A stretch of DNA of 9,373 nt from a virus. Its lineage: Duplodnaviria > Heunggongvirae > Uroviricota > Caudoviricetes. Numbering within the stretch: the stretch's first letter is position 1; each line of letters begins with the position of its first letter. Position numbers and translations under genes: made by a program. The notes below the pieces were generated by a model that was given only the letters and a program-made list of their open reading frames with translations, made no database searches and was not told where the DNA came from. Location: IMG/VR virus record IMGVR_UViG_2563366846_000008. One strand, written 5' to 3'. Shown piece after piece: positions 1-9,373 of the stretch.

Positions 1-750
1 ATGAGACGTGTTTTCTTGTTCACGCTGACGTGTGTTACAACTCTAATGTCTTTCGCTGTAGTTGCTGATAAGGGCGAACGCATGGACTTCGTTGCTGCAA
101 ATCAATGTCGGAGTCAGCCGGATGATGCAAAGCGGATAGAATGTTATGACAAAGCTGTAACTCCAACACGCACTAAAACATTAGAAAAGTTTGACAGCAG
201 GGATCAATGCAGGGAGGAGGCGTGGGAGAAAAAAAGGCTGTCTTGCTATGATCGTTTTTTTTCTCCAACATTCACTAATGCCAAAGTTGACAAAGTACAT
301 GAAGACAGTAGGGATGTTGGGAACTGGAAGGTTGATATAAAAACATCTCCAATCGATGACTCTAAAAATGTTGTTATCTTTGTTAATGGTAATGATTCTT
401 TTAGATCCCCGTTTGGAGACAACATAACCCCAACTCTTTATATTGCGTGTAGGGAAAATAAAACAGAACTGTTTATAGATTGGGATGTATACTTGGGGCT
501 GAACCAAACTACGATGATTCATCGAATAGATAAACAAAAAGCCATAAACAGAGAGTGGTCTATTTCAACAAATACAAAGGCCGTCTTTTATGATGGCAAT
601 GTGATTGATTTTATAAGAAAGTTACAAAATGGTAATCAGCTATTTGCTCAGATAACCCCATATAGTGAAAGCCCGGTGAGCACAACCTTTAATCTCAAAG
701 GTCTTTCTGAAGTTATTAAACCATTACAAGAATCATGTAACTGGAAATAA
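1..750 (+). CDS. Secreted hypothetical protein with N-terminal signal peptide and tandem Cys-pair repeats; A+T-rich cargo gene
   Basis: ORF from ATG at position 1 to TAA at 748-750 (249 aa). N-terminus MRRVFLFTLTCVTTLMSFAVVA looks like a Sec signal peptide. Two copies of a C-x12-C-Y-D motif (QCRSQPDDAKRIECYDK and QCREEAWEKKRLSCYDR). Visibly more A+T-rich than the tail genes. The upstream region is outside the window, so RBS and true start cannot be checked. Confidence 0.7.
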   Translation: MRRVFLFTLTCVTTLMSFAVVADKGERMDFVAANQCRSQPDDAKRIECYDKAVTPTRTKTLEKFDSRDQCREEAWEKKRLSCYDRFFSPTFTNAKVDKVHEDSRDVGNWKVDIKTSPIDDSKNVVIFVNGNDSFRSPFGDNITPTLYIACRENKTELFIDWDVYLGLNQTTMIHRIDKQKAINREWSISTNTKAVFYDGNVIDFIRKLQNGNQLFAQITPYSESPVSTTFNLKGLSEVIKPLQESCNWK

Positions 751-827: not shown

Positions 828-1124
828 TCAGCCATATTTACGGGCAAAATCTTCATCAGAGGTGCATAGATAGATAAAAAATTCAATAAATGCCACGATT
901 GCCGGAATGAATGTCCAGCAAAAAATAAGGTAAAGGAATCCTTGCCCCACTTTACCTAAATAAAATTTGTGTGCACCAAGACCACCTAAAAAGAAAGCCA
1001 GTAGTGCGGCTGTCATTCTGCTTTTTGAACTTGCTGTTCTTTGAGGTGCTCCACAATTGGGGCAGGATGTGGCATCTTTATGTATTTCCTTGCCGCATCC
1101 GCGACAAAATACCATTTCACTCAT
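828..1124 (-). CDS. Zinc-ribbon plus TM2-domain small membrane protein (NINE/YozV-like)
   Basis: 98-aa ORF. N-terminal CxxC...CxxC zinc ribbon (CRGCG...CPNCG) followed by a TM2-type hydrophobic core (LLAFFLGGLGAHKFYLGKVGQGFLYLIFCWTFIPAIVAFIEFFIYL). RBS AAAGGAA about 7 nt upstream of the ATG at 1124 on the minus strand. Convergent with the 1..750 gene and shares its terminator. Confidence 0.8.
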   Translation of the reverse strand: MSEMVFCRGCGKEIHKDATSCPNCGAPQRTASSKSRMTAALLAFFLGGLGAHKFYLGKVGQGFLYLIFCWTFIPAIVAFIEFFIYLCTSDEDFARKYG

Positions 1125-1157
1125 AAAGAGTTCCTTTCAAATTTAAACAAGCGTTAA

Positions 1158-1180
1158 GCCCACCACTCTTACTGGTGGGC
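1158..1180. other. GC-rich stem-loop (8-bp stem GCCCACCA/TGGTGGGC, 7-nt loop) flanked by an 8-bp direct repeat AATTTAAA
   Basis: Inverted repeat read directly: GCCCACCA at 1158-1165 and TGGTGGGC at 1173-1180. AATTTAAA occurs at 1140-1147 and again at 1184-1191. Lies between the hok-like ORF and the TM2 gene; could terminate the hok-like transcript on the minus strand. Confidence 0.35.
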
Positions 1181-1228
1181 CTCAATTTAAATTTGGGTGC
1201 CACTTCGACCTTACCCTGGCAACCGATT

Positions 1229-1251
1229 GACGGGGGATTGCTCCCCCCGTC
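1229..1251. other. GC-rich stem-loop immediately 3' of the hok-like ORF (minus-strand sense)
   Basis: GACGGGGG (1229-1236) and CCCCCGTC (1244-1251) form an 8-bp stem with a 7-nt loop. It lies about 10 nt downstream of the hok-like stop codon on the minus strand. Hok-family mRNAs carry structured 3' ends, but this assignment is inference. Confidence 0.35.
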
Positions 1252-1260
1252 GCGGTTTCC

Positions 1261-1401
1261 TTACTGCTTACACTGTAAGAACGCCGCAAACTCCGCTCCC
1301 CAGAAGCTCATCCGTATTTCACACAGCGAACCGTGCAGCATCCAGATGATGAGGATTGCCGTCACGCAGAACGTGATGGCCGTAAGCGATTTTTGCGACA
1401 T
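1261..1401 (-). CDS. hok: Hok/Gef-family type I toxin (small membrane toxin), not in the supplied ORF track
   Basis: Manual minus-strand translation from the ATG at 1401-1399 to the TAA at 1263-1261 gives 46 aa: MSQKSLTAITFCVTAILIIWMLHGSLCEIRMSFWGAEFAAFLQCKQ. It has one hydrophobic transmembrane stretch followed by SLCEIR...AAF, which matches the Hok-family pattern as I recall it (R1 Hok ...KSLCEIR...EVAAF...; HokA-like ...AAFLACK). RBS AAGGAG about 9 nt upstream. Overlapped by a longer upstream ORF in another frame, as mok overlaps hok. Confidence 0.55.
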   Translation of the reverse strand: MSQKSLTAITFCVTAILIIWMLHGSLCEIRMSFWGAEFAAFLQCKQ

Positions 1402-1504
1402 AGCGCTTGCTCCTTTTTCGGGGAGGCGCTAACCTATCACTTGCTAAGGGTAGATGGTTAGGGCCTCGGGTTAACGTTAAAGTTGACTCGGGGCTTTTCC
1501 ACAT
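1319..1504 (-). CDS. mok-like overlapping leader reading frame upstream of and overlapping the hok-like ORF
   Basis: 61-aa minus-strand ORF (MWKSPESTLTLTRGP...) starting at 1504 and overlapping the hok-like ORF (1401-1261) in a different frame, as mok does with hok in plasmid R1. Sequence is not recognisably conserved; called on architecture only. Confidence 0.3.
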   Translation of the reverse strand: MWKSPESTLTLTRGPNHLPLASDRLAPPRKRSKRYVAKIAYGHHVLRDGNPHHLDAARFAV

Positions 1505-1592
1505 CTGGCCTTCGGGTATTCCCTCCGACCATCAGCCGAAAGGCACCCGCGCGTAATCTATCGCTTTTTTGTTACTCCGGCAATTCTGCCTG

Positions 1593-1853
1593 TTAATTCT
1601 GAGGTAAAGGCAAACTCATCTGATTGTTTCCCCTGTGTGAAGCTGGCAGCTCATGCCACGGGATACCTTCTGAAGAGTGAACGCCGGAGGCGTGTTTTGA
1701 TGTGAATTTATGGAAAGCTTCCAGTGTTGAGAAGCATACGCCGCATTCCAGATTGTTACACTGGTAATACTTTTGCCGCACGGTGTTTGAATCATTTTCC
1801 GGACGACTGGTGCGGATACGGGCAGATGCGCCACAAAGCGGACAACGGAACAT
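1593..1853 (-). CDS. ogr: Ogr/Delta-family zinc-finger late-gene transcription activator
   Basis: 86-aa ORF beginning MFRCPLCGASARIRTSR...YYQCNNLECGVCF, the CxxC...CxxxxC zinc-finger N-terminus typical of P2 Ogr. Consensus SD AAGGGAGG 5 nt upstream of the ATG at 1853. Sits immediately downstream of gene D on the same strand, as in P2. Confidence 0.85.
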   Translation of the reverse strand: MFRCPLCGASARIRTSRPENDSNTVRQKYYQCNNLECGVCFSTLEAFHKFTSKHASGVHSSEGIPWHELPASHRGNNQMSLPLPQN

Positions 1854-1895
1854 AGCGACCTCCCTTAACGTGGTGCTGCCGCTATTCTAAGTTGC

Positions 1896-3005
1896 TCACT
1901 CTGTTTCCGCTATCCATTCCGGGATTTTTGCCTCAAGCTCAAGCTGCGTGGTAAAGCCACTGTTATCAATGGTGTGCTCGGCTTTCGCAATAATCCAGTC
2001 CTGATTATCAATCTCGCTTTTAAATCCTGTTACCGTGCCATGCATTTCGGGGTAGAGTTCTGCTCGTCCACGTGCCAGCGTGATGGAGAATGATGCGGCT
2101 CCGCGTTGTAGTTGTTGCCACTTTGCCGCCGCTGCGCGTCTTGCTGCCTGCTCGTTCTGATAAGTCTTGCGTAACACAAACACATTGCCTTCCGCGCCTT
2201 CCATATAATCACCTTCACGGCTGCTGCTTTTCTCCTTTTTGGGCTTGGGCGGTTTGCGGCGTTTCACGCTGACTTTTTTCTTTTTCCCGTAATTAAGATC
2301 AAGCCAGTAAGCGCGTACCCCCGTATACGCTTCGCGGTCAGCAATGCGGAACTGATGGCGATCGCCGCTGCTGCGTGTAATGGCGAACGATGGCAACGGC
2401 TGGCCCTGTGCGTTCACGCCACCGCCGGGCATGATGAATAACAGATTACCGCTTTTTACCGTGGTGATTGCGCCCAGCATTTCCGCCATGCGCGTAAGGA
2501 AGGACATGTCACTTTCTTCGGTCTGGTCGGCGTGGTCGATTTCGATATCCATCAGCATTTCGCTGATTTGCGGTTTCAGACCGTACCGATGAGCGATGGC
2601 GGATACCACACGCTCAACGGTCACATCATGCCAGGACACCTCACGTTTAACGTTAAATTCATCCCGAAAATCTGCGCTTCTGGCTGAAACAGTCAGCCTG
2701 TCCGGCGGTCCTTCGTGAGCGATTTCATCAACAATGTAAGTGCCTTTTTCTGTCAGCGGTTCTCCTTTCCAGCCAATGAGAACCGTCAGGCGCGCGCCCC
2801 GTGGCGGTAGCTGCAACTGACCATCCGCATCATCCAGCGTGATGGTGAGCTGGTCTGCTTCAAATCCCCGGTTGTCGGTCAGTGACAGACTCATCAGGCG
2901 CTCTGCCACGCCGGACAGCGTTTCCCCCTCCGCGAGAATATCAAAATCCGGCATTTTCACGGGGTCTGTGCTCTGACTGAGCAATTGCATGGTGGTGTCG
3001 GTCAT
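1896..3005 (-). CDS. D: Phage tail protein D (gpD, late control gene D / baseplate hub family)
   Basis: Translation carries gpD-like blocks (SLSLTDNRGFEADQL..DDADGQL, SARSADFRDEFNVKREVSWHD, FLTRMAEMLG, a Lys-rich linker KKKKVSVKRRKPPKPKKEK, GFTTQLELE). Start preferred at the ATG at 3005 (MTDTTMQ...), which has a strong SD GGGAGGG 4-5 nt upstream; the in-frame ATG at 3026 has no SD. Confidence 0.9.
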   Translation of the reverse strand: MTDTTMQLLSQSTDPVKMPDFDILAEGETLSGVAERLMSLSLTDNRGFEADQLTITLDDADGQLQLPPRGARLTVLIGWKGEPLTEKGTYIVDEIAHEGPPDRLTVSARSADFRDEFNVKREVSWHDVTVERVVSAIAHRYGLKPQISEMLMDIEIDHADQTEESDMSFLTRMAEMLGAITTVKSGNLLFIMPGGGVNAQGQPLPSFAITRSSGDRHQFRIADREAYTGVRAYWLDLNYGKKKKVSVKRRKPPKPKKEKSSSREGDYMEGAEGNVFVLRKTYQNEQAARRAAAAKWQQLQRGAASFSITLARGRAELYPEMHGTVTGFKSEIDNQDWIIAKAEHTIDNSGFTTQLELEAKIPEWIAETE

Positions 3006-3161
3006 CTTTCCCTCCCTGTGCGGCATGGTCGCATGTGCGTGCGGAGTGGGTTACTGCTTTTTGTTGTCGCCGTGGCGGGAGAACGGCGCAGGGGTGAGAT
3101 TACGCGCGTGGTGGGTGATGATTGTTGCCGAATCATTTAACGGATACAAGGGGCTGAAGCT
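3006..3161. promoter_or_regulatory. Divergent intergenic region between D (-) and FI (+); presumed late promoter region for the sheath operon
   Basis: 156-bp non-coding gap between two divergently oriented genes with strong RBSs on both sides. Contains a GC-rich dyad CGCCGT-N9-ACGGCG (3068-3088). No clean Ogr-type TGT-N12-ACA box was found by eye, so the promoter call is positional inference only. Confidence 0.35.
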
Positions 3162-4346
3162 ATGAGTGAAACTCGTTTTCATGGTGCCCGTGTCACGGAA
3201 AGTACCGACCTGGTAACAGCGATTAATGATGTTGATTCCAGCGTTATCGGTATCGTGGCAACGGCGGATGATGCGGATGCGGAGCTGTTCCCGCTGAACA
3301 AGCCCACACTGCTGACCCGCGTCAATGACGTGCTGGGAAAATGCGGTACTACGGGGACGCTTTATCGTGCGCTTAAGGCTATCGCAGACCAGGTGAGCAC
3401 AAAGGTGATCGTCGTTCGCGTGGCTGAACACAAAAAAGAAGGCGGTAAGACGCAGGATCAACTGGTTATCGGTGGTTCTGAGGATGACGGCAGCTATACG
3501 GGGATGTATGCGCTGCTTGTTGCAGAGCAGGATGAAAGCATCGGATACCGTCCGCGCATTCTGGCTGCGCCGGAGCTGGACACGGAGGCGGTGACAAAAT
3601 CTCTGTGCGTGATTGCAGGTAAACTGCGCGCGTTTGTGTATGCCTCATGTCATGGCTGTGACACGATGGCCGAGGCAATTACCTACCGCCAGAAATTCAA
3701 CGAACGTGAGGTGATGCTCTTATGGCCGGACTTTATCGCCTACAACCCGAAAAGTGGCAAAAACGAAACGTTCCCCGCGCCTGCCTATGCGTGCGGCCTT
3801 CGTGCGTACATTGACCATGAGCAGGGCTGGCACAAATCGCTGTCCAACGTTCCGGTTAAAAATGTGCTGGGGATGTCCAGGCATGTGTTCTGGTCGTTGC
3901 AGGCCGAAGACAGTGATGCCAACAGCCTCAACAACAAAGAAATCACGACCATTATTCGTCGCAACGGGTTCCGCTTCTGGGGCAACCGCACACCGGAAAC
4001 GAACGCCTACATCTTTGAGGTGTATACCCGAACCGCACAGGTGCTGGCTGATTCAATTGCGGAAGCGCAGTTTGAAACCATCGACAGTCCACTGACGCCT
4101 GCGAACGTGAAGGATGTTATCAGTGCCATCAGGGCAAAACTGGATTCACTGGTTACTGCCGGGAAACTGATTGGTGCGGAGTGCTGGTATGACGTGGTGG
4201 ATAACGGCACCACGAATTTACGTCAGGGGCGTGTGCGTATTCGCTACAAATATACGCCTGTTCCCCCGCTGGAAGACATGGAGCTTTACCAGTCGTTTAC
4301 TGATGAATTCTTTGGTCCCGCATTTGCGGTGCTGGGAGGTGCCTGA
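3162..4346 (+). CDS. FI: Contractile tail sheath protein (P2 gpFI family)
   Basis: 394-aa ORF with RBS AAGGGG 8 nt upstream. Conserved sheath blocks (FPLNKPTLLT, KLRAFVYASCHGC, YRQKFNEREVMLLWPDF, HEQGWHKSLSNV, IRRNGFRFWGNRT, YKYTPVPPLEDM) match P2 FI as recalled. Stop TGA overlaps the FII start (TGATG). Confidence 0.95.
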   Translation: MSETRFHGARVTESTDLVTAINDVDSSVIGIVATADDADAELFPLNKPTLLTRVNDVLGKCGTTGTLYRALKAIADQVSTKVIVVRVAEHKKEGGKTQDQLVIGGSEDDGSYTGMYALLVAEQDESIGYRPRILAAPELDTEAVTKSLCVIAGKLRAFVYASCHGCDTMAEAITYRQKFNEREVMLLWPDFIAYNPKSGKNETFPAPAYACGLRAYIDHEQGWHKSLSNVPVKNVLGMSRHVFWSLQAEDSDANSLNNKEITTIIRRNGFRFWGNRTPETNAYIFEVYTRTAQVLADSIAEAQFETIDSPLTPANVKDVISAIRAKLDSLVTAGKLIGAECWYDVVDNGTTNLRQGRVRIRYKYTPVPPLEDMELYQSFTDEFFGPAFAVLGGA

Positions 4347-4858
4347 TGGCTGTACCAAAACATCTTCGCTTTTTTACGTTGTTTGTGGATGGTGAAAACG
4401 AAGTGGGTAAAGTGACATCCGTCACGCCGCCCAAACTGACGCGCAAAACCGACAGCTATCGTGGTGGTGGCATGATGGGGGCAGTAAGTATTGATCTCGG
4501 TCTGGACGACTCCGCACTTGATGCGAGTTTTGTCATGGGGGGAGCTGTTCGTGCGCTGTTCCTTAAATATGGCGGCACGATTGACGGCACGCTGCTGCGT
4601 TTTGCGGGTGAATACTACACCGATGCAGAAAGCGATCTGTATGAAATCGAGATGCGCGGGCGTGTGACGGAAATTGATATGGGGGAAGCCAAACAGGGCG
4701 AAGCCACATCACACACTTACGCTGTCAAAAACACCTACTACAAGCTGAGCGTTAACGATCGCCCGCTGTGGGAAATCGACCTGTTGAACCACATCTACCG
4801 GAAGGACGGCAAGGACATTGTGCCTGACCGCATCCGTTCCGCGCTTGGGCTTGGCTGA
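4346..4858 (+). CDS. FII: Tail tube protein (P2 gpFII family)
   Basis: 170-aa ORF translationally coupled to FI (ATG overlaps the FI TGA; GGGAGG 6 nt upstream). Motifs VTPPKLTRKTDSYRGGGMMGAVSIDLGLDD and LRFAGEY...EIEMRGRVTEIDMGEAKQGE resemble P2 FII. Size and position immediately after the sheath gene fit. Confidence 0.95.
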   Translation: MAVPKHLRFFTLFVDGENEVGKVTSVTPPKLTRKTDSYRGGGMMGAVSIDLGLDDSALDASFVMGGAVRALFLKYGGTIDGTLLRFAGEYYTDAESDLYEIEMRGRVTEIDMGEAKQGEATSHTYAVKNTYYKLSVNDRPLWEIDLLNHIYRKDGKDIVPDRIRSALGLG

Positions 4859-4871
4859 TAAGTAATATGCA

Positions 4872-4890
4872 GGCGGCGCAGTGCGTCGCC
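4872..4890 (+). other. Intergenic stem-loop between tube gene and gene E (possible attenuator or mRNA-stability element)
   Basis: GGCGGCGC (4872-4879) / GCGTCGCC (4883-4890) forms an 8-bp stem with one G-U pair and a 3-nt loop. It is not followed by a T-run, so it is not a canonical intrinsic terminator. Confidence 0.35.
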
Positions 4891-4913
4891 TCTGACTGAA
4901 AAGGAGACAACTG

Positions 4914-5288
4914 ATGAAAGACATCGATACTGAAACCCGGAATAACACCGTGGCGGATGATGTGACGGCAGGTGAGGATATGGCTGTCGAACGTGGCGTA
5001 AAACTGACCCGACCAATTGAGCGTGGTGGCGAAAAAATCACGTATGTGGAGATCACCGGGGCTATTGAACAGGCTGGATCCCTGCGTGGTCTGTCGCTGT
5101 CTGATGTGCTGAATCTGAAAGCGGATACCATGTTCACGCTGTTGCCTCGCGTGACCTCGCCACGACTGGATGAAGTGATGATTAAAAAAATGTCGTCACG
5201 CGATTTTATTCAGTTGTGCGCTGTGGCTGTAAATTTTATGAGCGAGCCAGACTCTGGCGCGAAGAGCGTGCAGGCGACGGCAGCGTAA
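4914..5288 (+). CDS. E: Tail assembly chaperone gpE (zero-frame product)
   Basis: 124-aa ORF with RBS AAGGAG upstream. Lies between tube and tape-measure genes, the conserved position of the tail chaperone. Its 3' part is overlapped by a -1 frame that is open from 5186 to 5452. Confidence 0.85.
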   Translation: MKDIDTETRNNTVADDVTAGEDMAVERGVKLTRPIERGGEKITYVEITGAIEQAGSLRGLSLSDVLNLKADTMFTLLPRVTSPRLDEVMIKKMSSRDFIQLCAVAVNFMSEPDSGAKSVQATAA

Positions 5289-5452
5289 TCACCCTGGTGT
5301 GCTTTGAGCACATCGAAGATCTGGTGGCAGATATCGCCGCCATTTTTAACTGGTCGCCCGCCGAAATCTTCATGATGACGCCCGGCGAAGTGGTTAGCTG
5401 GCGTGAGCGGGCGGCACTTCGCAGCGGGAATGCAGACAATGAAGACTCTTGA
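4914..5452 (+). CDS. E+E': gpE+E' tail chaperone fusion made by programmed -1 ribosomal frameshift
   Basis: The -1 frame relative to E is open from 5186 (after TAA at 5183-5185) to TGA at 5450-5452 and overlaps the start of T. Candidate slip sites inside the overlap are the A7 run at 5184-5190 and the heptamer A_AAT_TTT at 5231-5237. The chaperone frameshift between tube and tape-measure genes is conserved in long-tailed phages and known in P2 E/E'. The exact slip site is not determined. Confidence 0.6.
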
Positions 5453-8246
5453 TATCCGGGTCGCTTTCAGCGCCGTTGACAGGCTGACCCGGCCTGCCGA
5501 AAACGCCCGCCGCCTGATGGGGCAGTTTGGTGACTCCATCCAGCGAACGCAGGGGGCGATCAAAAATCTCGAGCGTCAGGCGCGATCATTTGAGCGCGCC
5601 CGCGACGCTGTCAGTAAAGCGGATGCGGGTATCGTGAAAGCACGACGCCAGCTTAACGCCCTTAATCAGTTACAACGCACGGGTACAGTGCTCAGCGAAA
5701 AACAACAAAAGCTGATGCAGCAGTTAAGCACCCGGCTTGAACGCCTGAATGAATCGCGCACACGGGAAATTCAGAAAATGCGGGAGCTTGGCGGAGAGCT
5801 GAAACGCCACGGCATTTCCCTGACAGGCAGCGATAACACCATCCAGCAGGCCATCAGACGCACCGAACAGTACAACAACCAGCTTGAACGTGAACGGCAG
5901 GCGCTTGCGCGTGTAACGCGGGCGCGTGAGCGGTATTCGCGCACGCAGGAAACAGCGGGAAAACTGAAAACAGGTGGTGCGCTGGCAATTGGTGCGGCAG
6001 CGGCTGGCGGCTATGCTGCCGGGCGTTTTTTGCAGCCCGCTATCGGGTTCGGGAAAGAGATGTCCCGCGTTCAGGCGCTGACGCGAATCGACCAGAACAG
6101 TCCACAGTTTAAGGCGCTGCGTGAACAGGCGTTAAAACTTGGCTCTGAAACGCAGTTCACCGCAGGCGATGCCGCCAGTGGGCAGGCATTTCTGGCAATG
6201 GCTGGTTTTACTCCGCAGGCCATTCAGGCTGCGCTCCCTGGCGTACTGAGCATGGCAACGGCTGGCGGTATGGACCTCGGCGAGACGGCGGATATTGGCT
6301 CAAATATTCTGACGCAGTTCGGTCTTTCTGCTGACCAGATGGACCGGGTCGGCGACACACTCACTGCAGCGTTTACCCGTACCAACACTGACCTTCGCGC
6401 ACTGGGCGAAACCATGAAATATGCAGGCCCGGTGGCAGGTAAGCTGGGAATATCGCTGGAGCAGGCCGCAGCGATGGCGGGCGTGCTGGCGAATATGGGG
6501 ATCAGGGGGAGTGATGCTGGCACAGCGTTGCGTAAAAGCCTTGCCAATCTGTCATCGCCGCCAAAGGCGGCAGCAGAAGCTCTGAAAGAGCTGGGAGTGG
6601 CTGTCTCTGATGCGAACGGCAAAATGCGCCCGATGGAGGATGTGCTGGTCGACCTTTATAAAGCCACCCGCAAATACGGGGAAGTTGACCGGGTATCCTT
6701 CTTTAAGGACATCGCCGGAGAAGAGGCTTTCACATCATTTATGGCCCTCGTTGATGCGGCGGGTAACGGCTCCTTACCCAAACTGAGAAAAGAACTTGAG
6801 GGCGCACGCGGTGAGGCTGAACGCACGGCAAAAGTTATGGCCGACAACCTTGATGGCGATCTGAAATCACTCGGCAGTGCATGGGAAGGGTTGCGCATCC
6901 GCATTGCAGATCTGATTGATGGTCCGCTGCGTTCTGTCACGCAGTGGCTCACGCGGGTGGTCTCAAAAGTGACGGCACTGGCGCAGGCCCATCCGGCACT
7001 GACACGCCAGTTACTGATAGCAGGCGGTGCGTTACTGGCAATGACTGCAACGATTGGCTCGTTGTCGCTGGTTATTGGGGTGCTTTACGGGAAACTGGCC
7101 ACCTTGCGTCTTGGTTTCGACATTCTTACCCGGTCAATGAATGTCGTCAGGGTGTTGCCTGCGCTGTGGGGAATGGTGACGGGTTCTGTTTCTTTGCTGG
7201 GAGGCGCTATCGGGGCGCTGTTCAGTCCGGTTGGTCTTATCGTGGCTGCGCTTGCCGGAGCTGCCGTTCTTATCTGGAAATACTGGGATCCCATCAGGGC
7301 ATTTTTTGCCGGGGTGTTCAGCGGGATTATGGAAAGGCTGACCCCGTTGCGCGAAACCTTTGAACGGTTTGGTCCTGTTTTTGACGCAATCGGAAGCGGG
7401 ATAAGCCAGGTGTTTAACTGGTTTAAATCGCTGCTGTCACCGATGGAGTCCAGCAAGGAAACGCTGGATAAATGTACCAGTGCTGGCGAGATATTCGGTA
7501 ACGTTCTTGGTGGCGCGCTACAGCTTGTTCTGACGCCTGCAAAAATGTTGCTGGATACGCTGGCGTGGATACTTGAAAAACTCGGTGTGCTTCCGGATGA
7601 AGCGGAAAGGGCGAGAAAGAAAATCGAAGACGCACAGCGTGCGGCCATTCTTCAGGACAAGGTTGCTCTGTTTCAGGGAGACATTGCGAAAATCAATCCG
7701 CCGAAGTCCGCGGAAAATGGCAATGGCACCGGAGGCGATAACCCCAAAGATAACAAACCGCTCACAGACAGCAATACCGGCACGCTACGCAGACTCAGCA
7801 AAATTGCTGATAACACAGGTAAGCTGGTTGATGAGACAAAAAAACGTATTGGCCCCGGCGATATTGTCTTTAAGAACCTGCCCCGCGCACTTGCTGTTCG
7901 TGGGGAGTGGCAGGAGCGGAAGATTGCGCAGGTCAGTAAACCTGCTTCCGCAATCAACATCACACCCGTGGTCCCGACTCCGCTGCCTCCGGCGCTGGTC
8001 CCTGTTGTTGCGGCCAGCTCCCGCCCGGTGGCGGAGGCCATACGATCGCCAGTGGCATCAGTTCCTGCAACTTCCCGTAACCGGGAGCCTGTTGCCTCCG
8101 GATTTGGCGGTGAAATTCATGTTCATCTGCATAACGTTGTTACGCAGAATCCCCGCGAACTGGCGAAACTGGTCGGTGAAATGGTCAGGGCAGAGACGGA
8201 ACGGCGCACCCGTGCCGGACGTGGCAGTTTTTACGATAAAGATTGA
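5439..8246 (+). CDS. T: Tail tape measure protein (P2 gpT family)
   Basis: Long ORF of about 935 aa from the preferred ATG at 5439 (GGGA about 9 nt upstream); alternative in-frame starts at 5430 and 5403. Coiled-coil-like N-terminal third, central tape-measure core region, two long hydrophobic segments (LIAGGALLAMTATIGSLSLVIGVLYG and GAIGALFSPVGLIVAALAGAAVLIW) and a Pro-rich C-terminal region. Start overlaps the end of E'. Confidence 0.9.
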   Translation: MKTLDIRVAFSAVDRLTRPAENARRLMGQFGDSIQRTQGAIKNLERQARSFERARDAVSKADAGIVKARRQLNALNQLQRTGTVLSEKQQKLMQQLSTRLERLNESRTREIQKMRELGGELKRHGISLTGSDNTIQQAIRRTEQYNNQLERERQALARVTRARERYSRTQETAGKLKTGGALAIGAAAAGGYAAGRFLQPAIGFGKEMSRVQALTRIDQNSPQFKALREQALKLGSETQFTAGDAASGQAFLAMAGFTPQAIQAALPGVLSMATAGGMDLGETADIGSNILTQFGLSADQMDRVGDTLTAAFTRTNTDLRALGETMKYAGPVAGKLGISLEQAAAMAGVLANMGIRGSDAGTALRKSLANLSSPPKAAAEALKELGVAVSDANGKMRPMEDVLVDLYKATRKYGEVDRVSFFKDIAGEEAFTSFMALVDAAGNGSLPKLRKELEGARGEAERTAKVMADNLDGDLKSLGSAWEGLRIRIADLIDGPLRSVTQWLTRVVSKVTALAQAHPALTRQLLIAGGALLAMTATIGSLSLVIGVLYGKLATLRLGFDILTRSMNVVRVLPALWGMVTGSVSLLGGAIGALFSPVGLIVAALAGAAVLIWKYWDPIRAFFAGVFSGIMERLTPLRETFERFGPVFDAIGSGISQVFNWFKSLLSPMESSKETLDKCTSAGEIFGNVLGGALQLVLTPAKMLLDTLAWILEKLGVLPDEAERARKKIEDAQRAAILQDKVALFQGDIAKINPPKSAENGNGTGGDNPKDNKPLTDSNTGTLRRLSKIADNTGKLVDETKKRIGPGDIVFKNLPRALAVRGEWQERKIAQVSKPASAINITPVVPTPLPPALVPVVAASSRPVAEAIRSPVASVPATSRNREPVASGFGGEIHVHLHNVVTQNPRELAKLVGEMVRAETERRTRAGRGSFYDKD

Positions 8247-8258
8247 GGAGTCATGGTT

Positions 8259-8747
8259 ATGATGATGATCTACGGCATGTTTGTTTTTGAGCTGCGCACA
8301 CTGCCGCATCAGCAGTTACAGCAAAACAAAAGCTGGCGGCATGTGAAAAATGAACGCGTTAACCGTTCAGCAAGCTGGCAGTATATCGGTGCAGGTGATG
8401 ATCGCATCGTGCTTTCCGGCGTGCTTTATCCTGAAATTACAGGTGGCGAAGTGTCGCTTTCGTTGCTGACCACGCAGGCATATACAGGACGCCCCTGGCC
8501 TCTGATTGATGGTGTCGGGCAGATTTACGGCATGTATGTACTGACTGAAACGAATACGACCCGTTCCGAGTTTGATCGCTACGGTAAGGCGAAAAAGATA
8601 GAATTTTCACTGACTCTTGAACGCTGTGATGAGGATTTGCGGGAGCGCCTGCAATCCTCATCGTTCAGTGATATGCTGTCCGGCTTCAAAGATAAGGTCA
8701 CATCATCCCTTAACAGCGCGGCCAGCTCCGTTAAAGGGCTGTTTTGA
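8259..8747 (+). CDS. U: Tail protein U (P2 gpU family)
   Basis: About 162 aa from the ATG at 8259 (SD GAGGAG ends at 8250; in-frame ATGs at 8253, 8262 and 8265 are alternatives). Motifs FVFELRTLPHQQLQ, WRHVKNERV, GRPWPLIDGVGQIYGMYVLTE and KIEFSLTLER resemble P2 gpU. Directly follows T. Confidence 0.9.
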   Translation: MMMIYGMFVFELRTLPHQQLQQNKSWRHVKNERVNRSASWQYIGAGDDRIVLSGVLYPEITGGEVSLSLLTTQAYTGRPWPLIDGVGQIYGMYVLTETNTTRSEFDRYGKAKKIEFSLTLERCDEDLRERLQSSSFSDMLSGFKDKVTSSLNSAASSVKGLF

Positions 8748-8754
8748 TTAACGC

Positions 8755-8784
8755 AAAACCGCTAATGGTCAGATTAGCGGTTTT
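8755..8784. terminator. Intrinsic terminator of the tail operon; overlaps the invertase stop codon
   Basis: Perfect 12-bp inverted repeat AAAACCGCTAAT (8755-8766) / ATTAGCGGTTTT (8773-8784) with a 6-nt loop. On the + strand the stem ends in TTTT followed by CATTTTCC. It sits 8 nt after the U stop. The minus-strand invertase stop (plus-strand TTA at 8774-8776) lies inside the right arm. Confidence 0.55.
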
Positions 8785-9373
8785 CATTTTCCTGAGTCTG
8801 CCTGGTTGTTTCTTCAGCCTGTATATCGCCTACAGGGTGATAACGATAAATCGTCGATATGCCGATGTCGTAAATGATCGCCAGTTGTTTCCTGTCATGA
8901 CCGTTTTTAATCAGCCTCGCTATTTGCTCGTGTTGTTCTTTTGTCAACTTCGGGCGACGTCCGCCAATGCGTCCTTGTGCGCGTGCTGCTGCCAGCCCGG
9001 CCAGTGTACGCTCTACAATTAATTCACGTTCCATTTCGGCTAAAGCCCCCATGACGTGAAAAAAGAAACGCCCCATGGGTGTTGATGTGTCAATGCTGTC
9101 CGTCAGACTACGGAAATTAACACCTTTTTCCCGCAATTCCTCAATAAGCGTGATCAGGTGTTTCATACTTCTGCCCAGTCTGTCCAGCTTCCAGACAACC
9201 AGCGTATCTCCTTCTGATAGCGTTCTGAGCAGTTTTTTCAATCCCGGTCTGGCTGATTTCGTTCCGCTGATTTTATCTTCAAAAATCAGTTCACATCCTG
9301 CGCAGTTCAGTGCATTGCGTTGTAAATCCGTGTTTTGGTCATTTGTTGACACACGAATATAGCCAATTTGCAT
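8774..9373 (-). CDS. Serine DNA invertase of the Hin/Gin/Cin/Pin family
   Basis: 199-aa ORF starting exactly at the last base of the window. N-terminal catalytic motif IGYIRVSTNDQNTDLQ (catalytic Ser) and conserved blocks GDTLVVWKLDRLGRS, DSIDTSTPMGRFFFHVMGALAEMERELIVERT and GRIGGRRPKLT, with a C-terminal helix-turn-helix region. As recalled it is closest to Pin of e14 and Gin of Mu. Confidence 0.92.
   Translation of the reverse strand: MQIGYIRVSTNDQNTDLQRNALNCAGCELIFEDKISGTKSARPGLKKLLRTLSEGDTLVVWKLDRLGRSMKHLITLIEELREKGVNFRSLTDSIDTSTPMGRFFFHVMGALAEMERELIVERTLAGLAAARAQGRIGGRRPKLTKEQHEQIARLIKNGHDRKQLAIIYDIGISTIYRYHPVGDIQAEETTRQTQENENR

Follow-up and report, generated by a model that had tools for sequence, protein, structure and literature searches.

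Does the DNA between the ogr gene and the cargo genes of a P2-family prophage hold a complete type I toxin-antitoxin module, and if so, is its toxin controlled in the manner of the classical hok/mok/sok system? The window, meaning the whole 9,373-nt stretch that was analysed (IMG/VR record IMGVR_UViG_2563366846_000008), had been given a preliminary description from its letters alone, in which a short ORF was read as a Hok-like toxin gene accompanied by a mok-like frame and possibly by a Sok-like antisense RNA. We put the probability that positions 1195–1585 form an intact, prophage-borne hok/sok-type module at about 90%. The features of the locus are collected in Table 1.

Table 1 Coordinates of the observed and predicted features of the hok/sok-type locus in the window
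Feature	Position	Strand	Basis or remark
hok promoter -35, TTGCCG	1578..1583	-	17 nt upstream of the -10
hok promoter -10, TAGATT	1555..1560	-	hokW locus has TAGAAT in the alignment
Predicted full-length hok mRNA, ~400 nt	1150..1548	-	5' end by homology; 3' end uncertain
tac element	1534..1548	-	core GGGUGCC 1548-1542; mRNA 5' end; invariant in alignment
Alternative tac partner GUGGAAAAGCCCC (5' tac-stem)	1490..1502	-	helix 1 of RF01794
Open mok-like frame, 61 aa	1319..1504	-	not conserved
Anti-SD CUCC within GCGCCUCC	1422..1425	-	MFE partner of GGAG
hok SD, AAGGAG	1410..1415	-	read from sequence
hok CDS	1261..1401	-	PF01848; PHROG 251; WP_000078920.1-type RefSeq; identity to 72_1621
Coding segment, codons 35-40	1282..1297	-	pairs with start-codon region 1385-1400
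Post-stop GC hairpin	1228..1252	-	fold and terminator scan
fbi element	1195..1210	-	core GGCACCC 1201-1195; end of conserved module
Second hairpin, 10-bp stem then UUAACGCUUGUUU only	1158..1180	-	within cargo-specific DNA
Predicted Sok-like promoter -35, TTGCTC	1407..1412	+	overlaps hok SD region
Predicted Sok-like promoter -10, TAACCT	1430..1435	+	conservation; sokW homology
Predicted Sok-like RNA, ~57 nt	1442..1498	+	ends inferred from sokW homology
Sok terminator hairpin, 13-bp core, G·U-rich	1463..1494	+	followed by UUUU 1495-1498

The Hok/Gef peptide and its genomic setting

The claimed 46-codon minus-strand ORF is real and encodes the 46-aa peptide MSQKSLTAITFCVTAILIIWMLHGSLCEIRMSFWGAEFAAFLQCKQ. 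Its Hok/Gef identity was borne out by profile searches: Pfam PF01848 (HOK_GEF) matched at 29.9 bits (cut-off 22, E = 4e-7), with residues 7–44 aligned to profile positions 5–42 of 42, and PHROG 251, "MokW-like host killing", agreed with an E value of 1e-22. The best NCBIfam match was HokA (NF007290; 34 bits, E = 2e-8), far under the 89-bit equivalog cut-off of that model, so the peptide is not a HokA orthologue and belongs to a distinct cluster. HokA of E. coli K-12 and the 93_-type HokA-like sequences share its C-terminal ...AAFL.CK motif. NCBIfam Hok (NF007279) scored below threshold (21.6 bits vs 73), and searches against PADLOC defence-system models and PDB sequences returned no match.

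The peptide has the format of a Hok protein, with 46 aa in a family of ~50 aa and a single N-terminal membrane helix. The hydrophobic stretch covers approximately residues 6–22, and the 15-residue Kyte-Doolittle mean peaks at 2.55 over residues 8–22. Among 1264 Hok peptides, M1, C16, T18, L30, C31, E32, and E41 are conserved in >80% (bioRxiv 10.1101/2025.08.07.668861); M1, C12, T14, L26-C27-E28, and E37 of the peptide match conserved residues of the family, and C44 corresponds to its C/Y position 48. C27, E28, and E37 were invariant across 21 cluster members.

The carrier is a P88-like (Xuanwuvirus, P2-family) prophage in which the module is an accessory gene immediately downstream of ogr, confirming the proposed placement between ogr and variable cargo. 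The description of the gene as unannotated is wrong for public records, and the ORF was missing only from the first-stage ORF track. RefSeq E. coli genomes carry the same 141-nt CDS, labelled "Hok/Gef family protein" (WP_000078920.1-type), at the same post-ogr position in P88-like prophages, and the records of phages P88, P884B11, and Chuche annotate it as "MokW-like host killing". We found the module in 1544 of 5426 complete E. coli genomes (~28%). A scan of genome contigs yielded no more than 7 loci, and three of these are probably contaminants, so the diversity of homologues was drawn from plasmid, phage, and protein-lookup loci. Members of the cluster occur away from ogr as well: in Stx phages they follow lom, and others are found on plasmids or beside ykgM, ppiD, and fieF. 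The module boundaries were the same in every context, and homology to both phages and plasmids all ended at position 1195, spanning 1195–1569 or further. A short ORF directly after ogr might have been a chance reading frame, its structures merely terminators of ogr, and this reading is already refuted by the Pfam and PHROG matches, by conservation of the ORF where ogr is absent, and by the constant boundaries.

The locus is already known, having been called by PGAP and PHROGs and catalogued as Hok 72_1621, and the impact on annotation is small. The peptide is identical to 72_1621 of Hok cluster 72 (Table S2 of the 2026 catalogue preprint), without a single difference. The preprint reports it as toxic: the peptide was cloned for an assay that found toxicity for 42 of 45 homologues, and the three non-toxic ones do not include it (bioRxiv 10.1101/2025.08.07.668861).

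A decayed and silent relic, with its peptide or its expression signals dead like the IS-disrupted hok of E. coli K-12, is very unlikely here. Decay does occur in the cluster, as an IS interrupts some E. coli copies (H123) and some Salmonella copies are without the tac region (L012-14). Pedersen and Gerdes reportedly found in 1999 that chromosomal hok loci are often inactive. Against decay in the window stand an ORF, SD, both promoters, tac, fbi, and Sok hairpin that are all intact and consensus-like, the dN/dS of the hok CDS (0.22–0.41, indicating purifying selection), and the identity to a peptide that is reported as toxic.

The predicted hok mRNA and its folds

Promoters. A sigma-70 consensus scan of both strands over positions 1050–1900 called no promoter, and we placed both promoters of the module through homology and conservation instead. 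On the minus strand, 17/18 homologues have a TAnAnT hexamer 6 nt upstream of GGGTGCC. An ATTG... hexamer stands at the same distance as the hok -35 in most of the 18, although the upstream DNA is unrelated. The hok promoter is weak, since its -35 falls under the threshold of the consensus scan. The preliminary description had suggested that a plus-strand T6 run at 1565–1570 ends a Sok-like RNA. The run exists, but it is the A6 of the spacer that separates the two hok promoter hexamers. Since the hok mRNA only begins downstream of it, at ~1548, the run cannot end Sok. The terminator scan called none at this run.

Leader match. Searching the whole window with Rfam at the gathering threshold gave no match, while a relaxed search with RF01794 (hok leader) gave a full-length match at 1548..1388 on the coding strand (E = 7e-7; 37.6 bits vs a gathering score of 59). 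The hokW locus, used as a positive control, matched in the same orientation with 113.5 bits. The hokW-mokW-sokW system of the Stx2 phage 933W/Sp5 (Takada et al. 2021, PMC8621323) is also phage-borne, and the two leaders align at the promoter -10, the GGGUGC 5' end, GAAAAGCCCC, GAGGC, and the TAGGTTAGC box. The peptides are further apart, with 31% identity over 35 residues and 51 aa in HokW vs 46 aa here.

Folds. The 399-nt minus-strand RNA has an MFE of -169 kcal/mol (z = -5.9 vs shuffles). In the full-length MFE structure, tac and fbi form a 15-pair closing helix, and the seven pairs of the tac-fbi core were kept in 123/126 cells of the consensus fold of 18 homologues. When the RNA is trimmed from its 3' end, the fold contains the tac-stem instead, a helix with 98.7% of cells paired in the 18 homologues. 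Both helices and the SD/anti-SD pairing are nearly invariant, which makes covariation uninformative for all three; support for tac-fbi and the tac-stem is thus conservation and not covariation. The consensus fold also holds a 14-pair long-range helix between codons 35–40 and the start-codon region, present in MFE folds too, with a two-sided change in two sequences at one of its pairs.

The GC hairpins reported 3' of the stop codon were both recovered. Covariation is real for the post-stop hairpin, with compensatory changes in 6–7 sequences at two pairs, and partial for the Sok hairpin discussed below. The post-stop hairpin is the likely stop point for 3' trimming. The second hairpin, common only to relatives carrying the TM2 gene, is a possible transcript end. 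The terminator scan did not call it, and the hok mRNA 3' end has no good terminator in the window.

Ribosome-binding site. The good SD noted in the preliminary description, 8 nt before the ATG, was confirmed. Its pairing probability in the full-length fold is ≥ 0.98 for 17/18 homologues. The MFE partner of its GGAG in the window and most homologues is the anti-SD CUCC, with 87.5–99% of cells paired and no compensatory changes. Trimming the 3' end lifted the free-SD probability only from about 0.01 to 0.0–0.3, a weak thermodynamic switch. With so weak a release of the SD, the activation step is one that we infer.

The predicted antisense RNA and the leader frame

The preliminary description placed a possible antisense RNA on the plus strand and found no convincing promoter for it; a promoter can now be predicted at 1407–1435. 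A plus-strand promoter, hairpin, and U run together predict an antisense RNA of ~57 nt. The -10 is TAACCT in 17/18 homologues and TATCCT in one, and the -35 is conserved as TTGCTC, TTGACT, TTGCCT, or TTTACT at a spacing of 17 nt. In 933W the same hexamer, TAACCT, precedes the annotated sokW start by 7 nt, and we placed the predicted Sok start at that distance after the -10. Antitoxin activity was lost when the region around the sokW -10 element was mutated (PMC8621323). The predicted Sok 3' end, GGGGCUUUU, is identical to that of sokW, and the RNA would be fully complementary to nt 51–107 of the hok mRNA.

The hairpin that would terminate this RNA is some 20 nt shorter than that of the hokW locus. 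Its segment folds with -19 to -30 kcal/mol on the plus strand vs -10 to -19 kcal/mol on the minus strand in 18/18 homologues. Its pairing held in 89.5% of cells, vs 26–66% with slid partners, and a U·G pair at columns 28/55 was kept in 16 of 17 sequences.

The preliminary description also proposed a mok-like frame overlapping hok. The open overlapping frame is there, and its role as mok did not hold up, as it is not conserved. Under the canonical hok/mok/sok scheme these 61 codons would be the mok leader, translated so that Hok can be made and blocked by Sok. The precedent is plasmid R1, where mok has to be translated as far as the hok SD (PMC9841398). The frame shares with R1 mok the -1 register relative to hok, GAAGG precedes it, and an ATG at its start position is kept in 14/18 homologues. 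However, the frame is open only in the window and in E. albertii; by-hand reading of the alignments from the same ATG gives just 8, 19, and 24 codons before a stop in the second 933W copy, E2855, and Chuche, respectively. In the window it is open only because the hairpin variant there lacks stop codons. An overlapping leader frame with an ATG, GTG, or TTG start was absent in both alternative registers from 10/18 homologues, including the closest relatives (Chuche and E2855). Where the hokW locus has the real mokW ATG, the aligned triplet in the window is ACC, and the predicted Sok misses both the ATG at 1504 and its SD. We consider the canonical scheme improbable for this locus. A 3-codon GUG mini-ORF and an ATG at nt 45 were tried as other leader frames and dropped, as their stops vary.

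In contrast to R1 and hokW, the locus has no conserved mok leader frame. The antisense RNA probably acts via leader structure and decay and not by blocking mok translation. The broader proposition, that Hok of cluster 72, this locus included, functions without any mok leader frame and that the antisense RNA controls Hok synthesis directly, is one we advance tentatively, at somewhat short of an even chance. Under it, Sok would set which partner the GCCUCC anti-SD takes, the GAGGC of the target hairpin or hok's own SD, and would trigger decay of the mRNA. That this Hok cluster may lack a mok leader frame is the one mildly new point of the locus, and the absence of a conserved frame departs from the R1 model in a way that can be tested. 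If true, cluster 72 would be a simpler, mok-less variant of a hok/mok/sok paradigm that is 35 years old, and roughly one E. coli genome in four would carry it. The catalogue preprint deliberately left Sok, mok, and mRNA structure unanalysed (bioRxiv 10.1101/2025.08.07.668861, Escalera-Maurer et al.), and the coordinates in Table 1 supply base-level positions for the promoters, tac, fbi, and Sok of a very common Hok cluster that it left unmapped.

Proposed mechanism and biological role

The likenesses to R1 hok/mok/sok (parB; model in PMC9841398) are a weak hok promoter, a predicted ~400-nt mRNA closed by tac-fbi, an alternative tac-stem, a sequestered ribosome-binding site, a post-stop hairpin, and a predicted antisense RNA from within the leader with its -35 beside the hok SD. 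R1 differs in its plasmid location, as opposed to a prophage here, and in its 70-codon mok, where the SD of mok is the regulated one, while the sequestered SD here is hok's own. By analogy with R1 and hokW-sokW, the full-length mRNA would be made constitutively from its weak promoter and be translationally inert. Its first 7–15 nt (tac) can, in the predicted folds, pair either with fbi or with the nearby leader segment, and slow 3' trimming would strip fbi and let the leader refold. An abundant, short-lived antisense RNA would pair with the leader, and RNase III would cut the duplex. Were antisense transcription to drop, whether the element is lost, transcription is shut off, or the prophage is induced, Hok would be made, enter the inner membrane, and collapse the membrane potential.

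The preliminary description assigned the module an addiction or abortive-infection role, which is plausible. Our own ranking of the candidate roles would place retention of the prophage or module (post-segregational killing) first, help with lysis at induction second, and abortive infection third. The module might instead mainly serve the phage and neither addiction nor defence: on induction Sok would fall, Hok would permeabilise the cell early, and lysis and release would be faster. The sole experiment on a phage-borne hok, that on hokW-sokW of Sp5, found that it helps lysis on induction (PMC8621323). The stretch from the ogr stop (1593) to the hok -35 (1583) contains no terminator, so late read-through from ogr could raise hok mRNA over Sok on induction. 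According to a section title of the catalogue preprint, hok shows no enrichment close to defence systems (bioRxiv 10.1101/2025.08.07.668861). However, hokW had a small effect that changed the titre two-fold, the identity between the cluster peptide and HokW is low, and the cluster is also found on plasmids and at non-phage sites, where a lysis role would be senseless. A phage-serving role strikes us as a lesser though appreciable chance.

Phage 933W carries a second, unannotated cluster-72 copy between lom and L0129. This second hok locus of 933W/Sp5 persisted in the ΔhokW-sokW strain behind the hokW phenotype.

The hok ORF and its prior record

The locus is not new: it is an ordinary Hok locus, previously annotated and assayed, and its first identification was correct. 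The ATG-started ORF at 1401..1261 on the minus strand encodes MSQKSLTAITFCVTAILIIWMLHGSLCEIRMSFWGAEFAAFLQCKQ, and the good Shine-Dalgarno (SD) sequence claimed for it is present. A Hok/Gef profile check matched the peptide to Pfam HOK_GEF at 29.9 bits (gathering score 22, E 4e-7), and PHROG 251 ‘MokW-like host killing’ spanned it end to end (E 1e-22). The peptide fell far under the cut-offs of both the NCBIfam HokA and Hok models and shares 31% identity with the characterised HokW; judged by sequence, it is a member of a separate Hok cluster (cluster 72), distinct from HokA/Hok. Residues ~6–22 form a hydrophobic stretch, and all of the residues that are >80% conserved in a 1264-peptide survey (M1, C, T, L-C-E, E) are present. 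Relatives sharing 59–98% identity come from E. coli, Shigella, Salmonella, E. albertii, Citrobacter, and Klebsiella oxytoca, and dN/dS for the hok CDS is 0.22–0.41. Near-identical copies (72–98% peptide identity) also turned up in assemblies under the names Planococcaceae MAG, Vagococcus sp., and Xanthomonas pisi (L004, L005, L008); these look like enterobacterial contamination, not true hosts.

The preliminary description called the locus unannotated, but the 141-nt CDS is already in RefSeq E. coli as ‘Hok/Gef family protein’, also after ogr, and is labelled ‘MokW-like host killing’ in phages Chuche, P88, P884B11, and 500465-2. The identical peptide is 72_1621 in Table S2 of Escalera-Maurer et al. 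(bioRxiv 10.1101/2025.08.07.668861), who made clone LRP137 of it for a toxicity assay under arabinose induction; 42/45 homologues were toxic and 72_1621 is not one of the three exceptions.

Position 1195, directly past the 3′ element fbi (core GGCACCC, 1201–1195), is the limit of all phage and plasmid homology. The module is therefore 1195–1585, and the transcript end is supplied by whichever cargo follows. This 391-nt module was found in 1544/5426 complete E. coli genomes, at up to 8 copies per genome, and also on plasmids. One E. coli copy (H123, NZ_CP027103.1 3248493-3248655) matches just the first 163 nt, after which it enters a probable transposase gene (annotation ‘integrase core domain-containing protein’). 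It resembles the IS-disrupted hok loci of K-12.

The hok promoter and mRNA

At gathering thresholds Rfam gave no match in the window. In a relaxed search, 1548..1388 (-) aligned to the whole of RF01794 (37.6 bits, E 7e-7). The consensus of this model terminates in an SD-like box and AUG, and its 113.5-bit match in the genuine hokW locus of 933W (L026 411-585 (-)) lies on the strand that encodes hokW, with the annotated sokW on the other strand. From these alignments we read RF01794, though named ‘sok’ for the antitoxin, as a sense-orientation model of the hok mRNA leader. By homology to it, the hok mRNA is predicted to start at ~1548 with GGGUGCC, the core of the 5′ element tac (1548–1542). 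The hok promoter hexamers recur at the same positions in nearly all 18 aligned homologues despite unrelated upstream DNA (ogr, lom and terminator, ykgM, others).

Table. Features of the hok locus and of the second 933W hok locus (window positions unless an accession or locus is named)
Feature	Sequence	Position	Strand	Basis or remark
hok promoter -35	TTGCCG	1583-1578, 17 nt from TAGATT	-	recurrent position in homologues
hok promoter -10	TAGATT	1560-1555	-	recurrent position in homologues
hok SD	AAGGAG	8 nt 5′ of hok start	-	read from sequence
Post-stop hairpin		1228-1252	-	compensatory changes across homologues
Sok-like promoter -35	TTGCTC	1407-1412	+	conserved order
Sok-like promoter -10	TAACCT	1430-1435, after 17-nt spacer	+	conserved order
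Tail between TAACCT and hairpin		~20 nt	+	variable
Sok hairpin		core 1463-1494	+	conserved order; long, G·U-rich
Sok U run	UUUU	1495-1498	+	conserved order
Second 933W hok		L003 1566-1706 = AF125520.1 ~45.5-45.9 kb	-	between lom and L0129

Folding of the 399-nt RNA 1548..1150 gave -169 kcal/mol (z = -5.9), with nt 1–15 paired to GGUCGAAGUGGCACCC (1210–1195), and the RNAalifold consensus of the 18 homologues retained this tac–fbi closure. When the RNA was trimmed from its 3′ end back to the post-stop hairpin, the tac partner became GUGGAAAAGCCCC (1502–1490), a pairing that is helix 1 of RF01794 (98.7% of cells paired). The hok SD paired with an upstream CUCC in 17/18 full-length folds (probability at least 0.98), and in the consensus fold the start-codon region paired with codons 35–40. 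Both hairpins proposed 3′ of the stop are present; the second, in the cargo at 1180–1158, is the candidate transcript-end element here and is without a good U run.

The ogr stop codon (1593–1595) and the hok -35 are only ~10 nt apart. A terminator was not predicted in this gap (1583–1595), so ogr transcripts may extend into the hok leader. Such read-through would tie hok mRNA levels to ogr transcription. In three Salmonella enterica copies (L012–L014), hok, fbi, and both the promoter and the hairpin of Sok are retained, while ~165 nt 5′ of the hok ATG the tac/5′ leader segment is swapped for unrelated sequence. The 5′–3′ closure therefore cannot form there, and these copies may be deregulated or dead.

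The Sok-like RNA and the mok frame

No convincing antisense promoter had been seen at first, but TTGCTC/TAACCT is conserved on the plus strand. The hexamer 7 nt 5′ of the annotated start of 933W sokW is an identical TAACCT, and the sokW 3′ end, GGGGCUUUU, is the same as that of the RNA predicted here. Mutations around the sokW -10 element eliminated its antitoxin activity (Takada et al., PMC8621323). In 18/18 homologues the hairpin segment was more stable on the plus strand (-19 to -30 kcal/mol) than on the minus strand (-10 to -19), and it was 89.5% paired vs 26–66% for slid partners; its U·G pair is almost invariant and would become A·C in the minus-strand RNA. From the conserved order of promoter, hairpin, and U run, the -10 hexamer and 3′ end shared with sokW, and the plus-strand folding bias, we predict a Sok-like RNA of ~57 nt at 1442–1498 (+). 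The T6 run at 1565–1570, earlier suggested as its end, exists but corresponds to the A6 between the two hok promoter hexamers; lying outside the hok mRNA, it cannot be the Sok terminator and was rejected.

The hairpin/target segment (1463–1494; columns 82–107 of alignment A2) is the variant of E. albertii and the second 933W locus, while the remainder is nearest to P88-type phages, whose hairpin differs; by this comparison the locus looks mosaic. The mok-like frame 1504–1319, which has the register that mok takes relative to hok in R1, is open here because this hairpin variant is present. Its conservation was rejected: hand-read from alignments, the frame from the same ATG ends after 8, 19, and 24 codons in the second 933W locus, E2855, and Chuche, respectively, and an overlapping leader frame starting with ATG, GTG, or TTG is missing from 10/18 homologues. 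The true mokW ATG aligned to ACC in the window. In R1, hok requires mok translation as far as the hok SD (PMC9841398), whereas cluster 72, with no conserved mok frame, seems from sequence to depart from this requirement. By its own account, the 2026 catalogue made no attempt at mapping Mok or Sok (bioRxiv 10.1101/2025.08.07.668861). Whether cluster 72 truly does without mok is the single point meriting experiment.

Proposed role and prophage setting

By analogy with R1 and hokW-sokW, the full-length hok mRNA would be inert, 3′ trimming would activate it, and the antisense RNA would pair with it and lead to RNase III cleavage; a drop in Sok would then permit Hok synthesis and membrane depolarisation. 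The thermodynamic switch predicted on 3′ trimming is weak, so trimming is a candidate activation step only. Candidate roles are prophage or module retention, lysis help on induction (the hokW role; PMC8621323), and abortive infection. No PADLOC models matched.

Prophages are ~four-fold enriched in hok genes according to the catalogue (bioRxiv 10.1101/2025.08.07.668861). Cluster-72 loci recur at the outer edges of prophages: L015/16 follow ogr in an ordinary Salmonella prophage of P2-like type, L012–L014 follow tail-fibre genes, and the copies in Stx phages follow lom. This distribution fits an accessory-gene lifestyle. The window from 1195 to its right end is 91–95% identical to P88-like (Xuanwuvirus) phages, and 1–1194 is variable cargo. 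The cargo comprises a VasI-family ORF (1–750 (+), T6SS-associated, PF11319), which matched none of the 5426 complete E. coli genomes, plus a membrane protein with zinc-ribbon and TM2 domains (828–1124 (-)); where the window has the VasI-like gene, relatives have a com/DNA-methyltransferase pair. gpD and ogr (1593–3026) lie on the opposite strand to the sheath-tube-tape-measure-gpU block (3162–8747). The serine recombinase at 8774–9373 (-) (Resolvase and HTH_7; ‘DNA invertase’ in P88-like phages) is presumably a tail-fibre inversion switch.

A second hok locus, belonging to the same 46-aa cluster (peptide 72_1589), is present in 933W and in Sp5-type Stx phages. The original 933W record does not annotate it, and it is distinct from hokW-mokW-sokW, which is annotated at ~58.5 kb. 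This locus would persist in the ΔhokW-sokW Sp5 strain that Takada et al. studied, and it may bear on the modest phenotype of that strain.
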